A stretch of 63,207 nt of DNA from a virus. Lineage: Duplodnaviria; Caudoviricetes. The number at the start of each line of letters is the position of its first letter. Positions within the stretch are counted from its first letter, which is position 1. The stretch covers positions 1 through 63,207 of the IMG/VR virus record IMGVR_UViG_3300035670_000203; one strand, written 5' to 3'. Under the pieces are notes generated by a model. That model was not told the origin of the DNA and did no database searches. It saw nothing but the letters and a program-made list of their open reading frames with translations. A program made the translations under genes and the position numbers. This document shows positions 1-33,124 of the stretch, in pieces.

Positions 1-99
1 AGTCGCATAAAAAGTATTTTTATGGTTATACCAATACTGATAGACATACCATGCCCAGTTGCGATATTCGGTCAAGTTTCGGAGCAGTTGGTGCTTCAT
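1..99 (-). CDS. hypothetical protein, runs off left window edge
   Basis: Manual translation MKHQLLRNLTEYRNWAWYVYQYWYNHK...; directly downstream of promoter element 122-179. Confidence 0.6.
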   Translation of the reverse strand, partial: MKHQLLRNLTEYRNWAWYVYQYWYNHKNTFYAT

Positions 100-121
100 T
101 GGTGTCTGTGTGTATGAGAGT

Positions 122-179
122 ATTATAAGGCATCTGATGCCCCTGTGGAAGGGTCAGGGGTCAGTTTGGGAAGTGTCCT
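122..179 (-). promoter_or_regulatory. early composite promoter element copy 1
   Basis: Minus strand: AGGACACTT-N4-AACTGACCC, 30 nt, TATAAT (122-127); TTCCAC 17 nt upstream of -10. Confidence 0.8.
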
Positions 180-318
180 CCAATTCATCAAGTAAAGCAT
201 CCCAATCAGGATGAGGCATACCCGCAACTACCATTTCACCACATTCAGGGCAGTGGAACATACCGATGGGAGCATCCTTATAAATGTCTGCTGTTGGGTC
301 AAAAGAACATTTAGTCAT
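154..318 (-). CDS. small hypothetical protein with CPECG motif (54 aa)
   Basis: Manual translation MTKCSFDPTADIYKDAPIGMFHCPECGEMVVAGMPHPDW...; ATGA overlap with upstream ORF. Confidence 0.6.
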   Translation of the reverse strand: MTKCSFDPTADIYKDAPIGMFHCPECGEMVVAGMPHPDWDALLDELEDTSQTDP

Positions 319-554
319 TTGTAATCTTCTATGTAAGTTTGATAATCAAAATCTTCCTTATCAAATTGTTTAATCTCCTCATCCAAACAAGCAATAAGTT
401 TTACAATATGGTAGTATTGTTTGTAGTGCTCGTTGTTATACCATTCTTCGTAAGCATCTTCTATTGTAAGGTAAATGTTCTGATTGGTCTTATGTAAATC
501 AGCATAGACCTTACCATCCTGTCTTTTGAGCATTATGGTATAAAATTCAGTCAT
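315..554 (-). CDS. hypothetical protein
   Basis: ORF track, 79 aa, ATGA overlaps with both neighbours. Confidence 0.7.
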   Translation of the reverse strand: MTEFYTIMLKRQDGKVYADLHKTNQNIYLTIEDAYEEWYNNEHYKQYYHIVKLIACLDEEIKQFDKEDFDYQTYIEDYK

Positions 555-811
555 TCACTCCACCCCTCAAAGTATTCTGTGAAAAAACAAAAAGCAAGAG
601 ATTGTTTGTCGTTGTTCAGTTCTACACCAAAAAGAGAACTGGAAAGAAAAGAAAAAACGATATGGAACCCACCAGAAGACCAATGTTGGGAGGTTGGGTT
701 CTCATAATTCACCCACAAGAATGAACGATTTTTGAAGATACCGAACTGCCAAGTATAGGAAGTTTCAGCATTCTCCCATACCTTTTTATCGTATTGAAAG
801 AGTTTAGTCAT
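551..811 (-). CDS. hypothetical aromatic/beta-rich protein (probable paralogue of 3289-3552)
   Basis: ORF track; ATGA-coupled; similar pattern KLF..W..Y..G.F..W..S..F..SL. Confidence 0.7.
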   Translation of the reverse strand: MTKLFQYDKKVWENAETSYTWQFGIFKNRSFLWVNYENPTSQHWSSGGFHIVFSFLSSSLFGVELNNDKQSLAFCFFTEYFEGWSE

Positions 812-14078: not shown

Positions 14079-14435
14079 TCAATATAGTTTGATTTCCTTA
14101 TATTCTGAATTAAACTTCTCGTTAATATCTTTTTTTATTCTTGCTCTCTCATCATTAGTAATATAAACACTACGAGCAAGTTCTATAAACTCTTGATCGA
14201 ATCTTTGTTCTTTTTCTAAAAGTCTTAATTTGTCTTCAATCTCCCATAATTTTTCATTTACATCAAGTAAATTTTGCAAATCATCATAATTAAAAACATT
14301 ATGATTAGTTGCGATTTCTATTAAATGATTTAGTTCCTTACGAACGTATTCATTATCAGTATACTTTGATTTAATTTGGAGAATTGATATCTTATCAATC
14401 AATTCTCCAACAGATACTGGAATATCTACTCTCAT
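14079..14435 (-). CDS. DUF6165-like protein
   Basis: PVSVGELIDKISILQIK...N..LWEIED..R...FIELARSVY.TNDERA.IK..IN; family recalled as a glycosyltransferase neighbour. Confidence 0.75.
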   Translation of the reverse strand: MRVDIPVSVGELIDKISILQIKSKYTDNEYVRKELNHLIEIATNHNVFNYDDLQNLLDVNEKLWEIEDKLRLLEKEQRFDQEFIELARSVYITNDERARIKKDINEKFNSEYKEIKLY

Positions 14436-16579
14436 TTGGGGCAGTTATTTTGAATATGACTTAGAATTACTGCATTCTTACAAGCAACACCTAGACCAAA
14501 TGAATGCTCTATGTTAAACTTTGGAAGATCTAATTCTTCAAAGAATTTCTTCACTCCATATTCTTTACCATCATAGTTTTCAATTGCGGTGTCGTGGAAC
14601 AGTATAACTGCCTCATCACTTAGAAACTCACTCCAAGTTTCAAAGTCTTTCTTTACATCTTCATAGTGATGACTTCCATCAATGTGAAGTATATCAATTT
14701 TATTATCCCAAGTCTTTGCTATTTCATTAAAATCACCTTTAATAAAAGTGATATTGTCTTGAAGATGTAGTTTTTCACGTTTCATCATCACATATTCATA
14801 TTTACCTGGAGAATCATTTCCTACAAAGTCATCACCGACAAAATTATCAATACCGTAAACATGACCAATTCTTGGAAGGGCAAAACAGAAAGTGGAAAAT
14901 CCATAATCAACTCCTAGGTCAACCACAACTTTTGGATTCATAAATCTCACCAACCACTCAGCAAAATTGCGATGTCCAAACCAAGCTGTTGTTGGAGTAT
15001 CATCAATATTATTTAAGAAAAGTCTATCAATAGAATCAGTTCTTTCTTTGAGTCTTAGAGTTCCTGAATTAAATGCTGTGGCAAAGATAATAATATTCGG
15101 ATTTCTTACAAGTTTTCCAATTTCAAGCAGATGAGTAAATGCTTTACCCATAGCATCACCACCCATATTCATTGCTTCACTGACGGCATGGAAAGCATAA
15201 TTTGATGCTTGCTGAATATTTCTTAGTTGAATTAAAGCAATGCTACTCATAATGAATACATCAATTCTTGAAGAATCGAAGTATGCTTTAGAAATATTGA
15301 GATACTCTTGGCCAAGTTCTAATGCTTTTTCAAAGTTCTTGACTTCAAAATAATGTTTGAAAATGAACCACAGATAGTAAGTATTGTTTGGATCATTCTT
15401 ATATTCTCTTTCGCAAATGGAAAGATAGAATAGTTGCTTATCAATATTTGGTTGAACAGTCTTTGTGATTTTAATAGTTGTATCAACAGTAGACTCATTT
15501 AGATGATCTTGTGTAGGAATAAACAGTGGAGTTTCGTGAACTGAATTTATCCAGGTATAATTTTTAGTTCTATGAAAACGGACATGCGCTGTATTGGATA
15601 GAGTTGGTTCATTTTCACCAACCTTATCATAACGTTCATGATTAAATGCAGTGAATTCACCAGAGATTACATCGAGACCATCTGGGAAAAACTCTTCAAC
15701 ATCCTCATTGAAATCGAGTGAAAATGCCCAATCAGTTTTTACATAAGATAGTGCTTGATTTCTTGCCTTAGAGAAATCAAATTCTTCTCTTGTCTGTGGA
15801 TGTTCGTAGACTTCAATTCCTGCTTCTTTGAGAAGTTCTACTGTTTTATCTGTGCTTCCAGTATCAACTACAACAGTGTGAGAAAATTTCTTTGAGTTTT
15901 CAATAAATTTTTCAACATTCTTTTCTTCATTTTTAGCAATAGCATAAAGCGTCAAATCCATGTTAGTCAGTCCTCCAGGTTTAATATGAAACCAAACTTT
16001 TCCAATATTGTCTGGTCGATTATGATAATTTGTAATAAGTAAATTTTTACCTTGAAAGTATTTATTCACTGCTTGAATGACACCATCCCAGCAAGGAACA
16101 TAATCATCTCCACTGATAATTCCCCCTTGCTTTACTTTTGGATACCATGCAATAATATCTTCAAGAACACTCTCATAATCATGAGAAGCATCTATATGAA
16201 CAAAGTCTAAACTATTATCTTCAAACTGTTTTGCTGCTTCTATACTTTTTAGTCTTAATGGTATAACATAGTCTGATACTTCACATAATTGAATATTATT
16301 TTTGAAATCATCAAACAAAGTTTTACCTTGTAGACTTAATTCTTCTATATGATCTTTATGTTCATCACTTCCTTCCCAAGTATCTACAGCATAAAATTTT
16401 ACTGTTTTATTTGAGTTCTTGATGATGGAACCCATACACGAAGTAGATCTACCTCTCCATGATCCTACTTCTACCAATGTTCCGTTGTCTGGAACTTTAT
16501 CAAACCAAAATTTATAAACATCTGGGTAATCAAAAAACCCAGGAATTTCTTTCCAAGTGGTCATAGATACTGTTTCCAA
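14432..16579 (-). CDS. fusion: class I methyltransferase + GT2-like glycosyltransferase + TPR-like helices + class I methyltransferase
   Basis: VEVGSWRGRS and HIDASHDYE; IAKNEEKN..VVVDTGSTD.T..DFS.ARN; VDLGVDYGFS and HIDGSHHYE..FHD. Confidence 0.85.
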   Translation of the reverse strand: METVSMTTWKEIPGFFDYPDVYKFWFDKVPDNGTLVEVGSWRGRSTSCMGSIIKNSNKTVKFYAVDTWEGSDEHKDHIEELSLQGKTLFDDFKNNIQLCEVSDYVIPLRLKSIEAAKQFEDNSLDFVHIDASHDYESVLEDIIAWYPKVKQGGIISGDDYVPCWDGVIQAVNKYFQGKNLLITNYHNRPDNIGKVWFHIKPGGLTNMDLTLYAIAKNEEKNVEKFIENSKKFSHTVVVDTGSTDKTVELLKEAGIEVYEHPQTREEFDFSKARNQALSYVKTDWAFSLDFNEDVEEFFPDGLDVISGEFTAFNHERYDKVGENEPTLSNTAHVRFHRTKNYTWINSVHETPLFIPTQDHLNESTVDTTIKITKTVQPNIDKQLFYLSICEREYKNDPNNTYYLWFIFKHYFEVKNFEKALELGQEYLNISKAYFDSSRIDVFIMSSIALIQLRNIQQASNYAFHAVSEAMNMGGDAMGKAFTHLLEIGKLVRNPNIIIFATAFNSGTLRLKERTDSIDRLFLNNIDDTPTTAWFGHRNFAEWLVRFMNPKVVVDLGVDYGFSTFCFALPRIGHVYGIDNFVGDDFVGNDSPGKYEYVMMKREKLHLQDNITFIKGDFNEIAKTWDNKIDILHIDGSHHYEDVKKDFETWSEFLSDEAVILFHDTAIENYDGKEYGVKKFFEELDLPKFNIEHSFGLGVACKNAVILSHIQNNCPK

Positions 16580-19458: not shown

Positions 19459-20637
19459 TTATATTAATAGATCGTTATAATTTACTGCTGCTGTGTGTGA
19501 ATCTCCACAAGATACTTGTCTCCAATTAGTTCTACCAGCGAATGTTGTGATTGGAGTGGATATACTTGTTGGATTATTATTTCCATTTCCTGTAGTAAAT
19601 TCATTACCCCAAATCCAAAGGGTTCCATCAGCCTTGATTGCTGCTGTATGAATACCTCCAGAACTCACTTGTTTCCAGTTGTTTCCCCCAGCAAATGTTG
19701 TGACTGGAGTAGATCTATTGGTTGTATCTGCATTTCCAAGTTGCCCAGAAGATCCAATCCCCCAAGTCCATAAGGTTCCATCAGTTTTGATTGCTGCAAC
19801 ATTATTAGATCCAACATTTACTTGTTTCCAATTAGTTCCCCCAGCGAATGTTGTGATTGGAGTAGATCTAGTTTGATTGCTTGTTTCTGTGTTACCAAGA
19901 TATCCTGCACCACCCGCAAATCCCCAAGTCCATAAGGTTCCATCAGTTTTGATTGCTGCCACATGAAAACCTCCAGAACTCACTTGTTTCCAGTTATTTC
20001 CCCCAGCAAAGGTGGTAACTGGAGTGGATCTATTGGTTGTATCTGCATTTCCAAGATATCCTCCGGCACCCCAAGTCCATAAGGTTCCATCAGTTTTGAT
20101 TGCTGATGTAAAATATTGACCACAAGACACTTGTTTCCAATTAGTTCCTCCAGCAAATGTTGTGACTGGAGTACTTTTAGTAGTAGTTAATACTGAATCC
20201 CCAAGTTTACCATAAGTTGGGGTTCCCCAAATCCAAAGAGTTCCATCAGTCTTGATTGCTGCTGTGTGTTGAACTGCAGCACTTACTTGTTTCCAATCTG
20301 TTCCTCCGGCAAATGTGGTTGCTGGAGTAGACGTATCTACTGATATATTGCCAGTTCCAAGTCTTCCTGAAGAAGATTCCCCCCAAATCCATAAGGTTCC
20401 ATCAGTTTTGATTGCTGCTATATGTTGGGATCCGGAAATTAATTGTTTCCAGTTTATTCCTCCAGAAAAGGTCGTAACTGGAGTTAATTTGTCAGTAAAT
20501 GATGCCTCCCCAAGTCGTCCACTAAATGCTTCTCCCCAAGTCCATAAGTTTCCATCACGAAATAAATCTGCAGGAATAAAAACATCATCAAAACTATAAT
20601 CAACTCCGTTTTGTCTAAAGTTATAAAAGGTGGGCAT
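19459..20637 (-). CDS. RCC1-repeat protein C, single 7-blade propeller
   Basis: 7 copies of TP.TTF.G..(N/D)W.Q with AAIKTDGTLW.WG...LG between them. Confidence 0.9.
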   Translation of the reverse strand: MPTFYNFRQNGVDYSFDDVFIPADLFRDGNLWTWGEAFSGRLGEASFTDKLTPVTTFSGGINWKQLISGSQHIAAIKTDGTLWIWGESSSGRLGTGNISVDTSTPATTFAGGTDWKQVSAAVQHTAAIKTDGTLWIWGTPTYGKLGDSVLTTTKSTPVTTFAGGTNWKQVSCGQYFTSAIKTDGTLWTWGAGGYLGNADTTNRSTPVTTFAGGNNWKQVSSGGFHVAAIKTDGTLWTWGFAGGAGYLGNTETSNQTRSTPITTFAGGTNWKQVNVGSNNVAAIKTDGTLWTWGIGSSGQLGNADTTNRSTPVTTFAGGNNWKQVSSGGIHTAAIKADGTLWIWGNEFTTGNGNNNPTSISTPITTFAGRTNWRQVSCGDSHTAAVNYNDLLI

Positions 20638-24973: not shown

Positions 24974-24981
24974 TATTTATT
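24974..24981 (-). promoter_or_regulatory. T4-type late promoter (AATAAATA)
   Basis: NATAAATA box about 25 nt upstream of the TPR-GT start. Confidence 0.6.
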
Positions 24982-26224
24982 AGAAGTCTACAGACTTTAT
25001 TGCTACTGAGTGTCTATTTCCAGCACTTACTTGCTTCCAATTATTTCCTCCAGCAAATGTTGTTACTGGAGTGGATTTGCTAGGTGTTTCATTATTTCCA
25101 AGAGTTCCAGAAAATCCATTACCCCAAGACCAAAGAGATCCATCAGTTTTGATTGCTAATGTAAATCTATTATCAGCACAACTTACTTGTTTCCAATTAT
25201 TACCTCCAGCAAATGTGGTAACTGGAGTGGATGTATTGGTTGTTGATGCATTTCCAAGTTGTCCATTATTTCCATTACCCCAAACCCAAAGAGTTCCATC
25301 AGTTTTTATTGCTGCCATATGAACTTGCCCACAACTTACTTGTTTCCAGTCAGTTCCCCCAGCAAAGGTGGTAATTGGAGTAGATGAATTACCTGATGTG
25401 GGATCTCCATTTCCAAGTTGTCCATTTGTCTTTAATCCCCAAGTCCAAAGAGTTCCATCTGTTTTGATTGCTGCACCAAATAGACTACCTCCACTAATTT
25501 GTTTCCAATTAGTTCCCCCAGCAAAAGTAGTGACTGGAGTAGATCTATCAGTTATATCGGCATTTCCAAGTTGTCCACTACTGCCTCTACCCCAACTCCA
25601 AAGAGTTCCATCTGTTTTGATTGCATATGTACAATATCCACCACAAGAAACTTGTTTCCAGTCAGTTCCTCCAGCAAATGTGGTGATTGGAGTAGATCTA
25701 TTTCCTACTATAAGTAGATTTGCAAGTCTTCCATTACTACTACTTCCCCATAACCATAATGTTCCATCAGTTTTGATTGCTGCTGTATGCTCAGAATTTA
25801 AAGCAAAGGAACAACTAACTTGTTTCCAATTAGTTCCCCCAGCAAATGTGGTAATTGGAGTGGATATAATAGTAAGAACTGATGATAATGTATTTCCAAG
25901 TTGCCCACTAGCAGCAAGTCCCCAAGTCCAAAGAGTTCCATCAGTTTTAATTGCTGCTATTTGATCATCTCCAGCACTTACTTGTTTCCAATCAGTTCCC
26001 CCAGCAAATGTGGTGACTGGAGTGGATCTGTTTGGAGTTATATCGTTAGTTCCGAGGTTCCCATCAGAAGAAAGTCCCCAAACCCATAATTCTGGTGGAA
26101 TACCAATTTGTTGACCGATTTCAGGATAAACGCTCAGTAAATAATCTTTACGGATTAACTTACTTCCTAAGTCAACTCCATTACTATCTTTAAAATTAGT
26201 AGTAATATTTTGATTAGAACTCAT
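24980..26224 (-). CDS. RCC1-repeat protein B, single 7-blade propeller
   Basis: 7 copies of STP(V/I)TTFAGG..WKQ. Confidence 0.9.
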   Translation of the reverse strand: MSSNQNITTNFKDSNGVDLGSKLIRKDYLLSVYPEIGQQIGIPPELWVWGLSSDGNLGTNDITPNRSTPVTTFAGGTDWKQVSAGDDQIAAIKTDGTLWTWGLAASGQLGNTLSSVLTIISTPITTFAGGTNWKQVSCSFALNSEHTAAIKTDGTLWLWGSSSNGRLANLLIVGNRSTPITTFAGGTDWKQVSCGGYCTYAIKTDGTLWSWGRGSSGQLGNADITDRSTPVTTFAGGTNWKQISGGSLFGAAIKTDGTLWTWGLKTNGQLGNGDPTSGNSSTPITTFAGGTDWKQVSCGQVHMAAIKTDGTLWVWGNGNNGQLGNASTTNTSTPVTTFAGGNNWKQVSCADNRFTLAIKTDGSLWSWGNGFSGTLGNNETPSKSTPVTTFAGGNNWKQVSAGNRHSVAIKSVDF

Positions 26225-26911: not shown

Positions 26912-26919
26912 TATTTATG
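26912..26919 (-). promoter_or_regulatory. T4-type late promoter (CATAAATA)
   Basis: NATAAATA overlapping the stop of RCC1-A, about 15 nt upstream of ATG 26897. Confidence 0.55.
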
Positions 26920-29900
26920 AGAGTGGGAGGTCTGGTGAGATTCCTGATTGTATTGCTGCCGCATGTATTCTTCCAAAAAATACCTGTTTCCAGTTATTGC
27001 CCCCTGCAAAGGTAGTTACTGGACTATAAAACCTATTAGAATAATTTTGTTCAAAATTATTTCCAACTTGCCCAAAAGAATTATATCCCCAAGTCCACAA
27101 TGTTCCGTCAGTTTTAACTGCTATTGTATTACCATAACCAGCACCTACTTGCTTCCAATTAGTAGCATTTCCATCGACTTCTTTAGGAGACCAATTTTGA
27201 GGTGTTCCAAGTGCAAGGTCAGTATCATCTTCATTTTGTCCAAAAACATATAATTCATTATTAATTCCATCTCCTCTCAATGCAAAAGAACTTGAATTGT
27301 TAGTAAATACCTGCCTCCAATTAGTTCCTCCAGCAAATGTTGTAACTGGCGTACTTATATTTGGATTAGAAATTGATGCATATAAAGTTTTATTTCCAAG
27401 AAAACCATATCCATTATAACCCCAAGTCCATAATGTTCCATCAGTTTTAATAGATATTAAATTATTTGATTGTGAGCATACTTGCTTCCAATTAGTTCCT
27501 CCAGCAAAGGTGGTGACAGGAGTAGATACATTAGTTAATGATGCATTTCCAAGTTGTCCATAATTTCCACTACCCCAAGTCCATAAGGTTCCATCAGTTT
27601 TGATTGCTGCTGTAATAGAATCTCCAGCACTCACTTGTTTCCAATTAGTTCCTCCAGCAAAAGTAGTGACTGGAGTGGATTTATTGGTCGTATCTGCATT
27701 TCCAAGATGTCCAGAAGATCCAATACCCCAAACCCAAAGAGTTCCATCAGTTTTGATTGCTGCTGTGTGAACAGCTCCATTACTCACATGTTTCCAGTTG
27801 GTTCCTCCAGCAAATGTGGTGACTGGAGTGGATACAACACTATTAACTGTTACGCCATTTCCTAATTGTCCGTTTGTTGTTACTCCCCAAGTCCACAAGG
27901 TTCCATCAGTTTTGACTGCTACACCACAGTTAAATTGTGAACTAACTTGCTTCCAATTAGTTCCTCCAGCAAAAGTGGTTGTTGGAGTGAAAACTGCTTT
28001 TCTTCTACTTGTGAATCCATTTCCAATTTTTCCAGAATATTCATTTCCCCAAACAAAAAGTTCTTTATTGACTCCATTATCTTTTAGTGCCACAGTATGT
28101 TCTCGTCCTGAACTAACTTGTTTCCAATCAGTTCCTCCTGCAAATGTAGTAACTGGAGTAGAACTATTTGCAGTAAGCACGTTTCCAAGTTGCCCTAAAA
28201 GTCCATTACCCCAACCCCACAAAGTTCCATCAGTTTTAACAGCCATAGTATGAGCGTATCCACTACTTACTTGTTTCCAATCAGTTCCTCCAGCAAAAGT
28301 AGTAATTGGTGTAGATCTATTACCTACTATTAATGTATTTCCCAATCTTCCGTTGGATGTTGTTCCCCAAACCCAAAGAGTTCCATCAGTTTTGATTGCT
28401 GCTGTATGTCTGTTTCCGCTACTTACTTGTTTCCAATTAGTTCCTCCAGCAAATGTTGTAACTGGAGTAGATCTAGTACCTGTTATTAATGCATTTCCAA
28501 GTGACCCATAAGACATTCTTCCCCAAACCCAAAGAGTTCCATCAGTTTTGATTGCTGCTGTATGAAAACCTCCAGCACTTACCTGTTTCCAGTCGGTTCC
28601 TCCAGCAAATGTGGTAAGGGGAGTTGAAGTAACTGATAAATTATTTACAGCATTTCCAAGTTGTGAATTAGTGCCCAATCCCCAAGTCCATAAAGTTCCA
28701 TCAGTTTTGATTGCTGCAATATGAAACCTTCCGGAACTTGTTTGTTTCCAGTTGGTTCCTCCGGCAAATGTGGTGATTGGAGTAGATCTATCGGTTGTAT
28801 CTGCATTTCCAAGTAATCCAAAACGTCCATCTCCCCAAGTCCAAAGAGTACCATCAGTTTTGATTGCTGAATTGGTAGCAAAATTATCAAAAGTACTAGT
28901 TATTGAAACAGAAGATGATACTTGTTTCCAGTTAGTTCCTCCAGCGAATGTTGTAATTGGAGTAGAAATAGCACTTGTGGTAGTCAATCCATTTCCAAGT
29001 CTACCATTTTTTCCATTTCCCCAAACCCAAAGAGTTCCATCAGTTTTGATTGCTATAGTATGTTCATTGCTTGCACTTAAAGTGTAAAGATCTTCTGGTT
29101 CTGCAGTTAAAGTATCTGCCCAATTAGTTCCTCCAGCAAAGGTGGTGACTGGAGTAAATGGTATATTAGAAGTAAAAAATCCAAGTTGAGAATTGCTATT
29201 ATTTCCAAATGCCCATAAAGTTCCGTCAGTTTTTATTGCTAAAGTTGATGAAATAGAAGAATGCACTTGTTTCCAATTAGTTCCTCCGGCAAATGTTGTA
29301 ACTGGAGTATAAATTACAGTTGTAGGTGTAGAATTGGTTCCTAGTTTTTCTCCAAACCCCCAAGTCCATAAAGTTCCATCAGTTTTGATTGCTGATCCAC
29401 TAGATATTGTATAAAGATCTTCTGGTTCTGTAGTTAAAGTATCTGCCCAATTAGTTCCTCCAGCAAAGGTGGTGACTGGAGTATATCTTATTCTTAGTGG
29501 ACCATTCCCTAATTGACCATATACAGAATTTCCCCAAGACCACAAAGTACCATTGGTTTTAATTCCTAACATGTGATTTGCACCACATACAACTTGCTTC
29601 CAATCAGTTCCTCCTACAAATGTAGTAACTGGAGTAGATGTAGGTTCACCATTATTATTTCCAAGAGATCCATCTGGATTAAATCCATTAAATCCCCAAG
29701 TCCATAAAGTACCATCTGTTTTAACTGCAGCAGTGTTTCCTCTTCCAGCACTTACTTGTTTCCAATCAGTTCCTCCAGCAAAAGTAGTGATTGGCGTATA
29801 TGCATCTACATCAGTAGTTCCATTTCCAAGTTCTCCTGAAAATGCAGCTCCCCAAGTCCAAAGAGTTCCATCTGTTTTAATTGCAGCGACATGAAAAAAA

Positions 29901-30427
29901 CCACCTTCAACTTGTTTCCAATTGTTTCCTCCAGCAAAAGTAGTGACTGGTGTGGATCTATTTCCATTAACTGTATCATTAATTCCAATGTTAATATTAT
30001 CTCCCCAACACCACAAACTTCCATCAGTTTTGATTGCAAAGGTAGAAAATCCAGACAATGCTATTTGTCTCCAGTCATTCCCTCCAGCAAATGTAGTAAT
30101 TGGAGTTGATCTGACAGCCGGAGAAGATGTTATTCCATGTCCAAGTTGTCCATTAAATCCATAACCCCACATCCATAAGGTTCCATCAGTTTTAATACCT
30201 CCAGAATGACCATTCCCTAAAGAAATTTGTTTCCAGTTACTTCCTCCAGAAAAAGTGGTAACTGGAGTAATTACAGATGTTACTGCAGTATTATTACCAA
30301 TTTCTCCACCATATCCTTGATGTCCCCATAACCACAATTGATCTCCAATATACTGATCAATTAACCAGTATTCGGTTACAAAATAATTTTCTAAGTCTCC
30401 TTCTGGGGATAAAAACTGATTAGGCAT
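26915..30427 (-). CDS. RCC1-repeat protein A, 21 blades (3 x 7)
   Basis: 21 repeat units counted by hand; abuts the stop of the collagen fibre gene. Confidence 0.9.
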   Translation of the reverse strand: MPNQFLSPEGDLENYFVTEYWLIDQYIGDQLWLWGHQGYGGEIGNNTAVTSVITPVTTFSGGSNWKQISLGNGHSGGIKTDGTLWMWGYGFNGQLGHGITSSPAVRSTPITTFAGGNDWRQIALSGFSTFAIKTDGSLWCWGDNINIGINDTVNGNRSTPVTTFAGGNNWKQVEGGFFHVAAIKTDGTLWTWGAAFSGELGNGTTDVDAYTPITTFAGGTDWKQVSAGRGNTAAVKTDGTLWTWGFNGFNPDGSLGNNNGEPTSTPVTTFVGGTDWKQVVCGANHMLGIKTNGTLWSWGNSVYGQLGNGPLRIRYTPVTTFAGGTNWADTLTTEPEDLYTISSGSAIKTDGTLWTWGFGEKLGTNSTPTTVIYTPVTTFAGGTNWKQVHSSISSTLAIKTDGTLWAFGNNSNSQLGFFTSNIPFTPVTTFAGGTNWADTLTAEPEDLYTLSASNEHTIAIKTDGTLWVWGNGKNGRLGNGLTTTSAISTPITTFAGGTNWKQVSSSVSITSTFDNFATNSAIKTDGTLWTWGDGRFGLLGNADTTDRSTPITTFAGGTNWKQTSSGRFHIAAIKTDGTLWTWGLGTNSQLGNAVNNLSVTSTPLTTFAGGTDWKQVSAGGFHTAAIKTDGTLWVWGRMSYGSLGNALITGTRSTPVTTFAGGTNWKQVSSGNRHTAAIKTDGTLWVWGTTSNGRLGNTLIVGNRSTPITTFAGGTDWKQVSSGYAHTMAVKTDGTLWGWGNGLLGQLGNVLTANSSTPVTTFAGGTDWKQVSSGREHTVALKDNGVNKELFVWGNEYSGKIGNGFTSRRKAVFTPTTTFAGGTNWKQVSSQFNCGVAVKTDGTLWTWGVTTNGQLGNGVTVNSVVSTPVTTFAGGTNWKHVSNGAVHTAAIKTDGTLWVWGIGSSGHLGNADTTNKSTPVTTFAGGTNWKQVSAGDSITAAIKTDGTLWTWGSGNYGQLGNASLTNVSTPVTTFAGGTNWKQVCSQSNNLISIKTDGTLWTWGYNGYGFLGNKTLYASISNPNISTPVTTFAGGTNWRQVFTNNSSSFALRGDGINNELYVFGQNEDDTDLALGTPQNWSPKEVDGNATNWKQVGAGYGNTIAVKTDGTLWTWGYNSFGQVGNNFEQNYSNRFYSPVTTFAGGNNWKQVFFGRIHAAAIQSGISPDLPLS
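29085..29483. repeat. 72-bp direct repeat (29085-29156 and 29412-29483), 1 mismatch
   Basis: Encodes TPVTTFAGGTNWADTLT(A/T)EPEDL in blades 8 and 6. Confidence 0.9.
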
Positions 30428-33124
30428 TTACTTTCCTCCAGCAATTTCTTTGATTGCTTCAATTAATACAGCAATTAAGTTTCCGTAAGAAACTGTTTTT
30501 AATCCTTTATCATTTGTGGTAACAACTTCTGGAAGTATCTTTTCCATTTCTTGAGCAATGACACCAATAGATGACTGATTATGGCCGTCCTTCCAATCAT
30601 ATTTAACACCATTCATTTGCATTACAAGTTCAAGAGCATTTTCAATTGGTCTAATGTTAGTTTTCTGTGATTCATCAGATAGTGAATTGAATACAGTTGC
30701 AGATAAAGTTCCAGAGGAAGGATTATAAGTTAATTTATTTTCTGAAACTTTTAACTCAGAAAAGACCCCAGAAGTTACAGTAGAATATCCAACATAATAA
30801 GTTTCATTAGTTGATTCATCATTTACTACAGTTAAAGAAGCAGAACTCCCTTGAGTTCCTTGGATTCCTTGATTTGATAATCCCTGCAATCCCTGTAATC
30901 CTTGTCTTCCTTGAACACCTTGAGAACCCTGAACACCCTGATCTCCTTGTGCTCCAACTCCACCAAAGGTTCCTTGTGATCCTTGAATTCCTTGTCTTCC
31001 TTGAGTTCCTTGAACCCCTTGGTCTCCTTGTGCTCCAACTCCACCAAAAGTTCCTTGGGATCCTTGAATTCCTTGTCTTCCTTGAGAACCCTGAACACCC
31101 TGATCTCCTTGTGCTCCAACTCCACCAAAGGTTCCTTGTGATCCTTGAATTCCTTGTCTTCCTTGAGTTCCTTGGACTCCTTGATTACCTTGATTACCTT
31201 GCAATCCTTGAGTTCCCTGAGGACCACTTATATTTCCTATATTAATCCAATTACCACTTCCAACATATACCCAAAGGTCATTTAATGCATCATCAAGAAC
31301 AGCATTACCAAGTTCTGCAGATGGGAAAGCAGCATTTAAAGTAGTTTCTGGATCATTAGGAGGTGCTACATTTACATCAGGAACGGATCCAATAATAATA
31401 GTTGCTTGTCCATTAGCACCTTGAACCCCTTGAAGTCCCTGTCTTCCTTGATTTCCTTGAGTTCCTTGAATTCCTTGAACACCTTGATCCCCTTGTAAAC
31501 CAACGGCACCAAAAAGACCTTGAACACCTTGAACACCTTGAACACCTTGATTTCCTTGATTTCCTTGATTGCCTTGTAATCCTTGATTTCCTTGAACTCC
31601 TTGGTTTCCTTGATTGCCTTGAATTCCTTGGTTACTTAATCCTTGAACACCCTGATTTCCTTGAACTCCTTGGTTTCCTTGGGTTCCTTGTATACCTTGA
31701 TCCCCTTGTAAACCAACGGCACCAAAAAGACCTTGAACACCTTGAACACCTTGATTGCCTTGATTACCTTGAACTCCTTGATTACTTAAACCTTGAAGAC
31801 CTTGAACCCCTTGGTTTCCTTGATTACCCTGGTTTCCTTGAAGACCCTGATTACCTTGATTACCTTGAACACCTTGATTGCCTTGGTTTCCCTGGAGTCC
31901 TTGATTACCTTGGAGTCCTTGATTACCTTGAACACCTTGGTTTCCTTGATTGCCTTGAACACCTTGGTTGCTTAATCCCTGAAGACCTTGATTTCCTTGA
32001 ACCCCTTGAGATCCTTGATCTCCCTGAATACCTTGGGATCCTTGTAAACCAACTGCTCCAAAAGTTCCTTGGTTTCCTTGATTACCTTGCAAACCTTGGT
32101 TACCTTGATTACCTTGGACTCCTTGATTACTTAAACCTTGAAGTCCTTGATTGCCTTGATTCCCTTGAAGTCCCTGGTTTCCTTGGACACCTTGGTTTCC
32201 TTGATTGCCCTGTAAACCTTGGTTTCCTTGATTTCCTTGGACCCCTTGATTGCCTTGATTTCCTTGTAATCCTTGGGTTCCCTGAGGACCACTTATATTT
32301 CCAATGTTGGTCCAATTGCCACTTCCAAGATAAACCCAAAGATCATTTAATGCATCATCTAAGACTGCATTGCCAAGTTCTGCAGATGGGAAAGCAGTGT
32401 TTAAAGTAGTTTCTGGATCATTAGGAGGCGCTACATTTACATCAGGAACGGATCCAATAATAATAGTTGCTTGCCCAGTAGTTCCCTGAGTACCTTGAAC
32501 ACCAAAAGGACCTTGATTTCCTTGATTACCTTGAACACCTTGATTACTTAAACCTTGAAGACCTTGAACACCCTGAACACCTTGGTCTCCCTGAACACCT
32601 TGATTACCTTGAACACCTTGATTACTTAAACCTTGTAATCCTTGAACTCCTTGATCACCTTGTAATCCTTGAACACCCTGAACACCTTGGTCTCCCTGAA
32701 GACCTTGATTACCTTGTAATCCTTGGTTGCCTTGCAATCCTTGGTTGCCTTGAACACCCTGGTTTCCTTGATGTCCCTGAAGACCCTGATTACCTTGTAG
32801 ACCTTGATTACCTTGTAATCCTTGGACTCCCTGGTTACCTTGTAGACCCTGAATACCTTGCGTTACAACATCTCTAGATGGAACCCAGAATCTTTCTCCC
32901 TCATACCCATCAGCAGCAATTAGAACATAATGCTCTACTGGAACTTTAATAGGACTTTCTGGAGTTCCTGGTGTAAAAGGATTAGTTCCAACAGAAGAAA
33001 CACCAACATTAGGATCACCTAAATCAGGTTCTGCCTGTTCCAATCCAAGGAATTCATATCTATCAGATGTAATTCCTGATTGAGGTAATCTTTGTACTCT
33101 TCCTGTTGTATATTTCTTAGTCAT
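30428..33124 (-). CDS. collagen-like (Gly-X-Gln) tail fibre with C-terminal S74 intramolecular chaperone
   Basis: Three long QGN/QGL/QGV tracts, two duplicated globular knobs, C-terminal SD...K.NI..I.NAL...GVIAQE. Confidence 0.85.
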   Translation of the reverse strand: MTKKYTTGRVQRLPQSGITSDRYEFLGLEQAEPDLGDPNVGVSSVGTNPFTPGTPESPIKVPVEHYVLIAADGYEGERFWVPSRDVVTQGIQGLQGNQGVQGLQGNQGLQGNQGLQGHQGNQGVQGNQGLQGNQGLQGNQGLQGDQGVQGVQGLQGDQGVQGLQGLSNQGVQGNQGVQGDQGVQGVQGLQGLSNQGVQGNQGNQGPFGVQGTQGTTGQATIIIGSVPDVNVAPPNDPETTLNTAFPSAELGNAVLDDALNDLWVYLGSGNWTNIGNISGPQGTQGLQGNQGNQGVQGNQGNQGLQGNQGNQGVQGNQGLQGNQGNQGLQGLSNQGVQGNQGNQGLQGNQGNQGTFGAVGLQGSQGIQGDQGSQGVQGNQGLQGLSNQGVQGNQGNQGVQGNQGLQGNQGLQGNQGNQGVQGNQGNQGLQGNQGNQGNQGVQGLQGLSNQGVQGNQGNQGVQGVQGLFGAVGLQGDQGIQGTQGNQGVQGNQGVQGLSNQGIQGNQGNQGVQGNQGLQGNQGNQGNQGVQGVQGVQGLFGAVGLQGDQGVQGIQGTQGNQGRQGLQGVQGANGQATIIIGSVPDVNVAPPNDPETTLNAAFPSAELGNAVLDDALNDLWVYVGSGNWINIGNISGPQGTQGLQGNQGNQGVQGTQGRQGIQGSQGTFGGVGAQGDQGVQGSQGRQGIQGSQGTFGGVGAQGDQGVQGTQGRQGIQGSQGTFGGVGAQGDQGVQGSQGVQGRQGLQGLQGLSNQGIQGTQGSSASLTVVNDESTNETYYVGYSTVTSGVFSELKVSENKLTYNPSSGTLSATVFNSLSDESQKTNIRPIENALELVMQMNGVKYDWKDGHNQSSIGVIAQEMEKILPEVVTTNDKGLKTVSYGNLIAVLIEAIKEIAGGK
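30925..31170. repeat. 81-bp tandem repeat x3 in collagen tract
   Basis: tctccttgtgctccaactccaccaaa at 30942, 31023 and 31104. Confidence 0.85.

Follow-up and report, generated by a model that had tools for sequence, protein, structure and literature searches.

Proteins made of tandem repeats are commonly taken to be linear series of domains. Among β-propellers, other layouts have been described. The accessible part of the Trm734 report describes three WD40 propellers, likened to DDB1, with nested single-strand closures: the N-terminus contributes the final strand of BPC, BPA receives its final strand only once BPB has been completed, and BPC is finished last (PMC6847430). In the accessible portion of the UBR5 report, the ring of an RCC1-like domain is interrupted by UBA and small β-barrel inserts (bioRxiv 10.1101/2023.06.06.543850), and partial accounts of phage and mosquito propellers mention immunoglobulin-like or lid inserts between blades. 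Here we analyze an RCC1-repeat gene, P0001, in the IMG/VR virus record IMGVR_UViG_3300035670_000203, a linear stretch of 63,207 bases that is referred to in full as the window (CheckV completeness estimate, 25%). We put at about 0.75 the probability that P0001 forms three seven-bladed RCC1 rings, with blades 8–14 inside a ring of blades 6–7 and 15–19, itself inside a ring of blades 1–5 and 20–21. This reading draws on relatives of P0001, through the grammar of their sequence markers and the structure model of one of them, P0084.

P0001 is a single open reading frame (ORF) of 1170 residues with an ATG start on the minus strand. Its tandem repeats of ~51 residues exceed the curated cut-offs of RCC1-like profiles (PF00415, PF13540 and PF25390), with Pfam matches to WD40_RLD (E value 1.5e-177; 590.9 bits, cut-off 150), to RCC1 in 15 stretches (E 3.5e-117; 383.3 bits, cut-off 21.7) and to RCC1_2 (E 3.7e-117; 380 bits, cut-off 22). 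The best sequence match in the PDB is UVR8 (E 5.5e-54). To parse the blades, the sequence was cut at each PVTTF motif and scanned with a hidden Markov model (HMM) built from the regular repeats of P0001 itself. The parse starts with an N-terminal half repeat (n, residues 31–50), which holds only the LWLWG strand and what comes after it, continues through 20 full repeats, and finishes with a half repeat at the C terminus (c, residues 1136–1160), which ends past the AAIQ strand, confirming the total of 21 blades proposed in the first-pass annotation. The closing blade of an RCC1 propeller is assembled from two plus two strands, and n and c together supply what one such blade requires.

Four repeats depart from the regular form (Table 1). 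A 72-bp DNA repeat with one mismatch had been noticed earlier in blades 6 and 8, and its two copies indeed differ at 1 of 72 bases. They encode ...PVTTFAGGTNWADTLT(T/A)EPEDLY, and the ADTLT(T/A)EPEDLYT stretch of both blades is located between repeat strands 1 and 2. The atypical segment said to be common to blades 14 and 19 is likewise present, with translation coordinates agreeing within a base; the hairpins of these blades run 3 residues beyond the usual KTDGTLW. Coding the WADT..EPEDLY linker as A, the lengthened hairpin as L, the terminal half repeats as n and c, and every other repeat as regular reduces P0001 to the string n.....A.A.....L....L.c, with A falling in repeats 6 and 8, L in repeats 14 and 19, and spacings of 6 and 13. 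When two A and two L were scattered at random over the 20 internal repeats, 0.25% of 2,000,000 trials produced a balanced string of seven blades at each level. A separate peculiarity is a 9-residue insert between strands 2 and 3 of blade 9 (the SSSVSITSTFDNFATNS region, residues ~490–517; window 28877-28960, minus strand), which falls outside this A/L grammar and has counterparts in similar private loop inserts of relatives.

We then define an A/L family by a W-A-D-T..E-P-E-(D/E)-L-Y linker, placed between strands 1 and 2 of a repeat and paired with a lengthened B–C hairpin 6 (mod 7) repeats later. P0001 carries such a pair, together with a single n/c pair and the N-terminal MPNQF...IDQY sequence. 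Of 7,998 candidates scored in a first homologue search, 7,422 proteins reached E ≤ 0.001; the first 120 listed were coded in the same way, and 152 after a second search. The lengths of the first 120 cluster near 770, 1145, 1520 and 1880 residues, and 95 of them have 15, 22, 29 or 36 blade-HMM matches, as 7N blades (14, 21, 28 or 35) would give with the split one counted besides (113/152 with the second search included). Blade numbers quantised in this way point to closed seven-bladed rings. In 14-blade relatives the A–L distance is always 6 repeats, whereas its placement with respect to the two ends takes five forms, running from nA.....L......c to n.....A.....L.c. Bigger relatives combine such pairs either serially, as in n...A.....L..A.....L.c, or by nesting, as in P0005 (n.....A..A..A..A.....L...L...L...L.c), with seven blades at each level when A and L are read as brackets.

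The bracket reading was quantified over the whole set. Rule-based calls among the first 120 found 85 A-bearing proteins, of which 58 parse, 22 fail and 5 have irregular end calls. With rule or HMM calls over the 152 relatives, 102 are A-bearing and 72 parse, representing 21 distinct topologies, serial and nested; nesting depth among these is 1 in 48, 2 in 20, 3 in 2 and 4 in 2. Marker HMMs trained on 14-blade proteins only arrived at the same parse for P0001 and for 27 further proteins held out of the training. Stack-matched A–L pairs, a statistic that works without every marker being found, are spaced 6, 13, 20 or 27 repeats apart (6 mod 7) in 132 of 144 cases, against a chance expectation of one in seven. 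Random placement fits the full grammar in 4.5%, 0.25%, 0.014% and 0.0009% of trials for one, two, three and four cassettes, respectively.

A scan of IMG/VR yielded 108 distinct RCC1 ORFs at 75 loci, only 10 of them with an A marker (4 parse, 4 fail and 2 are irregular), a sample that informs gene order but not the statistics. Querying a representative library with P0084 brought up giant multi-RCC1 proteins; only 2 of 136 new ones carry the A marker. Two relatives, P0036 and P0045, read n...A.........L......c, seemingly one inserted cassette plus a bead-type long hairpin linker, which suggests that nested and contiguous architectures are mixed within the family. P0153 (2936 residues) and a locus designated L004 (7956-15635) encode giants of ~50 blades with internal c–n junctions as well as A/L cassettes; these are chains of nested clusters.

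Structural evidence came from an AlphaFold2 (AF2) model of P0084, a 14-blade relative of 768 residues that is 59% identical to P0001 and whose string, n.....A.....L.c, is the outer pattern of P0001 minus the innermost cassette. With a 72-row alignment of A/L-type relatives, the model reached a mean predicted local distance difference test (pLDDT) score of 67.9 and a predicted template modelling (pTM) score of 0.58, with strands at 80–87; mean pLDDT over the five models ranged from 59 to 68. VIA-align superposed one ring on HERC2 RLD2 (7q40_A; Z 42.5, root-mean-square deviation (rmsd) 2.1, 349/369 residues aligned) over model range 28..759, the range also covered by matches to RCC1, HERC1, WBSCR16 and BLIP-II, and a second ring on UVR8 (4dnv_A; Z 42.1, rmsd 2.4, 344 aligned) over range 314..686. 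A wide structure search returned the same two classes of match. The inner ring is complete within residues 314–686, and the other, likewise complete, is composed of residues 28–~300 and ~690–759. A 349-residue ring spread over a 732-residue span, with the other ring in mid-span, describes a propeller inserted in a propeller, and the aligned ranges rule out two contiguous rings for that model.

The same model bears on where the chain would cross between rings. The L hairpin is modeled longer than usual, with strands at 647–653 and 658–665, and the first strands of the A repeat and of the post-L repeat are unformed. The first-pass annotation had called the segment in blades 14 and 19 ‘closing’; in the model it is a lengthened B–C hairpin of the last inner blade, and the exit probably lies elsewhere. 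Entry is most likely at the A linker, with exit through the degenerate segment that follows the L blade, an assignment read from the model with low confidence.

Comparisons at the level of single blades were consistent with conserved junctions. Junction blades fall into four classes, pre-A, A, L and post-L, whose members resemble each other within a protein, as expected if junctions keep a conserved structure. The outer units n, 4, 5, 18, 19, 20 and c of P0001 each pair reciprocally, as best matches, with their counterparts in P0016, which, unlike P0001, places its two cassettes serially. Blade nucleotide and protein identities in P0001 and three relatives of the same topology gave no clear evidence of a cassette copied into itself; the colinear signal between middle and inner rings arises from the similarity of A to A and of L to L. 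The earlier proposal of a module inserted into itself is therefore not borne out by blade similarities, which show only junction blades resembling junction blades. Blade matching did not locate the edges of the indels that separate P0001 from its 14-blade relatives. A MAFFT alignment of the 14-blade relatives on P0001 was discarded: it placed their A..L segment on blades 8–14 and left residues 900–1170 uncovered, and gap placement is arbitrary among near-identical repeats. The 7-blade proteins of related contigs were also set aside as blade comparators; they are orthologues of the third RCC1 gene of the window (MPTFYNF...) and match only consensus-like blades.

Several observations weigh against the nested assignment for P0001 and are taken together here. 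Among the marker-bearing relatives, 30 of 102 do not parse cleanly (23 fail and 7 are irregular), and a minority of 12 of the 144 A–L pairs lie at other spacings. Many parse failures are fragments or have one marker too divergent for detection; P0016 is an example, and by eye reads n.....A.....LA.....L.c. AF2 prediction of whole P0001 from a 4-row alignment of same-topology proteins gave no usable model (mean pLDDT 33, pTM 0.35). The supporting model is a relative’s and only moderately confident; its junctions at 299–316 and 671–688 have pLDDT below 50, which makes the entry and exit strands uncertain, and its alignment mostly put A on A and L on L, so that the cassette reading was possibly favored. 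As noted, blade matching leaves the borders of the indels unplaced. A complex prediction of P0001 residues 1–436 against 815–1170, with the inner cassette omitted, scored 0.01 against a mark of 0.32 and counts neither way.

Of the alternatives, the one that survives best is a string of beads, in which P0001 consists of contiguous propellers 1–7, 8–14 and 15–21 and the markers are copy-and-paste scars or plain surface loops. Copying and pasting in units of seven blades would alone yield the bracket grammar as history, leaving the fold unproven, and this too counts against nesting. Some more distant relatives are contiguous: P0043 reads n......cn......cn......c, and P0065 and P0019 have a linker at every seventh blade. 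Blades 8–14 make up one ring in either arrangement, and the direct fold of P0001 is unusable. The rings of the P0084 model, at 28..759 and 314..686, are however incompatible with contiguous rings, and 95 of the 102 A-bearing proteins have exactly one n and one c half repeat, with no linker at blade 7. In P0001 that blade, the boundary that contiguous rings require, has a tight, normal TDGT hairpin. The markers are moreover kept among relatives that are ~55–65% identical overall, which favors a structural role over a scar. We consider the beads arrangement unlikely.

Less probable again, and in our estimate distinctly so, is a mixed fold in which blades 8–14 form an inserted ring and the other 14 blades are arranged as two rings, contiguous or strand-swapped, instead of 1–5 with 20–21 and 6–7 with 15–19. 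P0036 and P0045, which seem to join an inserted cassette to a bead-type linker, point in this direction, and the junction strands are poorly modeled; against it, the four markers of P0001 parse exactly, at the 0.25% chance level given above, the identical string recurs in P0032, P0018 and P0021, and the outer pattern of P0001 is shared by seventeen 14-blade relatives, with P0084, the one modeled, showing an outer ring of 5.5 + 1.5 blades. That the rings are a prediction artefact on near-identical repeats, the real protein being an open solenoid or disordered between blades, is scarcely credible: predictors can be misled by repeat proteins, pTM is just 0.58 and the five models vary in pLDDT, but both P0084 rings fit solved RCC1-like domains over ~345 residues at rmsd 2.1–2.4 and Z ~42, and the strict 7N blade numbers point to closed rings.

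Nested rings thus remain the preferred reading of P0001 over the 1-7/8-14/15-21 split, as the first-pass annotation had held; the grammar in relatives and the nested model of P0084 speak for it strongly, if indirectly, whereas the protein’s own fold, at pLDDT 33, adds nothing. Under nesting, the chain would start with a conserved 28-residue segment and then lay down 5.5 blades of the outer ring. The ADTLT.EPEDLYT linker would lead out of that ring, two blades of the middle ring would be built, and the second copy of the linker would open the whole inner ring, blades 8–14. The chain would then return to complete the middle ring (blades 15–19), and last of all blade 20, which lacks the usual PVTTF strand, and the C-terminal half blade would complete the outer ring, closing on the N-terminal LWLWG strand. 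Each inserted ring would thereby have an entry linker in its first blade, and a lengthened hairpin with a degenerate following strand at its last. On this scheme the outer ring would comprise residues 29–327 and 1085–1162, with the middle and inner rings divided as in Table 1; the exact C-terminal edge of the inner ring (residue 814) is uncertain.

The first 28 residues (MPNQF.SPEGD.ENYFV.EYWLIDQY.G) are near-invariant in relatives at any blade number and form two short helices in the homologue model, making them a candidate attachment segment.

The P0001 gene lies within a tail-fibre module. It comes straight after a collagen-like fibre gene with a Peptidase_S74 chaperone domain and ahead of a DUF4376 gene, and tail-fibre, baseplate-hub and tail genes surround it. 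Two further RCC1 genes of seven blades each occur in the window, one in a second hypervariable slot past the DUF4376 gene and the other, the third RCC1 gene, with close 7-blade orthologues in many viral contigs. The DUF4376 protein has 66–67% identity across five related contigs, where its place is always between the two variable RCC1 slots, and it may serve in assembly or as an adaptor. The order of collagen-fibre end, RCC1 slot 1, DUF4376, RCC1 slot 2 and a gene designated p446 is kept in five of the seven A-type IMG/VR loci, the remaining two holding only p446 onward, and genes beyond p446 are 65–86% identical in the three loci that reach that far. Synechococcus phage S-SRM01 (Kyanoviridae) has the same gene order with 7-blade RCC1 genes in both slots. 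Slot sizes range from ~390 to 2559 residues, the second slot reaching 2559 in related contigs.

Hypervariability of genes in an otherwise conserved tail-fibre module usually marks parts that recognise the host. The gene context makes a host-surface binding role likely for P0001, which would be present in the virion as a variable module that binds the host surface; that context is the sole basis for calling it an adhesin. The two hypervariable slots of this conserved cyanomyovirus module are likely host-range determinants. Farther along the window, a 715-residue ORF has PHROG matches to a DNA methyltransferase in its N-terminal part and to a beta-1,4-glycosyltransferase (residues 207–471), and in S-SRM01 the same region holds sulfotransferase, glycosyltransferase and sugar epimerase genes beside the third RCC1 gene. 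Phage RCC1 families in PHROG (phrog_7220, phrog_4219 and phrog_16766) are labeled ‘regulator of chromosome condensation’ under ‘DNA, RNA and nucleotide metabolism’. RCC1 proper is a chromatin-associated guanine-nucleotide exchange factor that acts on Ran. There is no reason to expect Ran exchange activity in a cyanobacterial phage, and for genes of a tail-fibre module the label is a transferred name that misleads; the present analysis corrects it.

Table 1. Features of the P0001 gene and its surroundings, with positions in the window. Ring assignments are predictions.
Feature	Position	Strand	Basis or remark
Whole gene, 21 RCC1 blades (P0001)	26915..30427	-	ORF, Pfam, blade HMM, marker coding
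N-terminal segment, residues 1-28	30344..30427	-	conserved in relatives
72-bp repeat copy 1, blade 6	29412..29483	-	DNA repeat
72-bp repeat copy 2, blade 8	29085..29156	-	1/72 bases differ from copy 1
Putative entry linker A, blade 6, outer to middle ring, ADTLTTEPEDLYT, residues 328-340	29408..29446	-	marker calls
Putative entry linker A, blade 8, middle to inner ring, ADTLTAEPEDLYT, residues 437-449	29081..29119	-	marker calls
Marker L, blade 14, lengthened B-C hairpin, ALKDNGVNKELFVWG, residues 780-794	28046..28090	-	homologous hairpin modeled longer
Marker L, blade 19, ALRGDGINNELYVFG, residues 1049-1063	27239..27283	-	marker calls
Predicted outer ring, N-terminal part: n, blades 1-5, strand 1 of repeat 6, residues 29-327	29447..30343	-	grammar and P0084 model
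Predicted middle ring, N-terminal part: post-linker blade 6, blade 7, strand 1 of repeat 8, residues 328-436	29120..29446	-	grammar
Predicted inner ring, contiguous 7-blade cassette, blades 8-14, residues 437-814	27986..29119	-	grammar; P0084 314..686
Predicted middle ring, C-terminal part: blades 15-19 and degenerate segment after 19, residues 815-1084	27176..27985	-	grammar
Predicted outer ring, C-terminal part: blade 20 and c, residues 1085-1170	26918..27175	-	P0016 reciprocal matches
Collagen-repeat tail fibre, 898 aa, C-terminal Peptidase_S74 intramolecular chaperone	30428-33124	-	abuts RCC1 start codon, no gap
DUF4376 protein, 223 aa	26226-26897	-	weak PHROG ‘tail fiber protein’ matches
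Second RCC1 gene, 7 blades, 414 aa, second hypervariable slot past DUF4376	24980-26224	-	window
Third RCC1 gene, 7 blades, 392 aa, MPTFYNF... N-terminus	19459-20637	-	window
715-aa ORF, DNA methyltransferase and beta-1,4-glycosyltransferase matches	14432-16579	-	PHROG

Beyond P0001 itself, we lean towards the view that cyanophages use recursive insertion of propeller into propeller to make receptor-binding proteins of branched, tree-like form, following a bracket grammar that allots seven blades to each level. To a similar degree we favor a cassette principle, whereby a self-contained 7-blade RCC1 unit fits an inter-blade loop of any ring, including rings that are themselves inserts, to give two to five or more rings. 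The rule of seven per ring would act as a foldability filter on a freely recombining repeat array, and the outcome would be a branched multi-ring family of two to five rings, serial or nested. Bracket syntax carried by the sequence alone predicts which distant blades share a ring, in agreement with the relative’s structure model. If this holds, the family would clearly exemplify the recursive insertion of domains into others of the same fold, and would be the first natural protein family with a recursive (context-free) architecture rule. The folding requirement of seven blades per ring would then filter the products of repeat recombination, making the family a natural experiment in fold-constrained repeat evolution, and designers would gain from nature a pair of linkers with which a propeller can be plugged into a second one. 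The relevance extends to the architecture of proteins, the evolution of repeats and host recognition by phages.

The first-pass annotation knew of no description of this architecture. Both P0084 rings together found no match among 48,161 solved representative chains, where the best two-propeller chains aligned 426–446 residues at rmsd 13–16.5, and no BFVD model matched both rings (best template-modelling score normalised by query, 0.43). No propeller inserted whole between another’s blades, at variable sites and recursively, was found in the literature; subscription journals and supplements were barely covered, and a prior description is possible. The claim of novelty accordingly stands for recursive RCC1 nesting, as far as that search reached, but not without partial precedents, namely Trm734/DDB1 and UBR5 in the accessible parts of their accounts.

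Each ring is an ordinary RCC1-like domain. The RCC1-like domains of HERC2 and HERC1 and the ring of UVR8 are the best structural matches to single rings (Z 40–42.5, rmsd 2.1–2.4); HERC2 differs in having separate RCC1-like domains, titled first, second and third, and UVR8 in being a single ring. P0043, P0065 and P0019 share the same repeat at 41–45% identity to P0001 and have 21 or 28 blades, but they lack the A linker, and each seventh blade brings either a junction of half repeats or a long linker in the hairpin, the pattern expected of beads on a string. The C-terminal domain of phiKZ gp131 is likewise a β-propeller on a phage protein, presumably sited at the phiKZ tail, and 4gbf_A, which is phiKZ gp131 by its entry title, aligns with the P0084 inner ring (Z 17.0, rmsd 4.5, 274 aligned); it is a single ring whose sequence is not RCC1-type.

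UBR5 comes closer, having, as its partial account describes, a seven-bladed RCC1-like ring that is discontinuous in sequence. Its structure (8p83_A) matches the P0084 outer ring over 28..768 (Z 18.9, rmsd 4.3, 287 aligned), but its inserts, on the same account, are not propellers, the protein is eukaryotic and the arrangement is not recursive. DDB1 and Trm734, so far as the available descriptions go, resemble P0001 in holding several seven-bladed propellers per chain that are not simply consecutive, and differ in having WD40 blades with one closing strand displaced at a fixed position. P0001 falls outside a DDB1-like triple cluster, as its repeats are RCC1-type and insertion sites vary, so the likeness is topological only. 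In the A/L family, by contrast, RCC1 blades form host rings that are split between whole blades at variable sites (for example, 5.5 + 1.5), and each inserted ring brings its own entry and exit signatures, with insertions arranged serially or up to four deep in at least 21 topologies.

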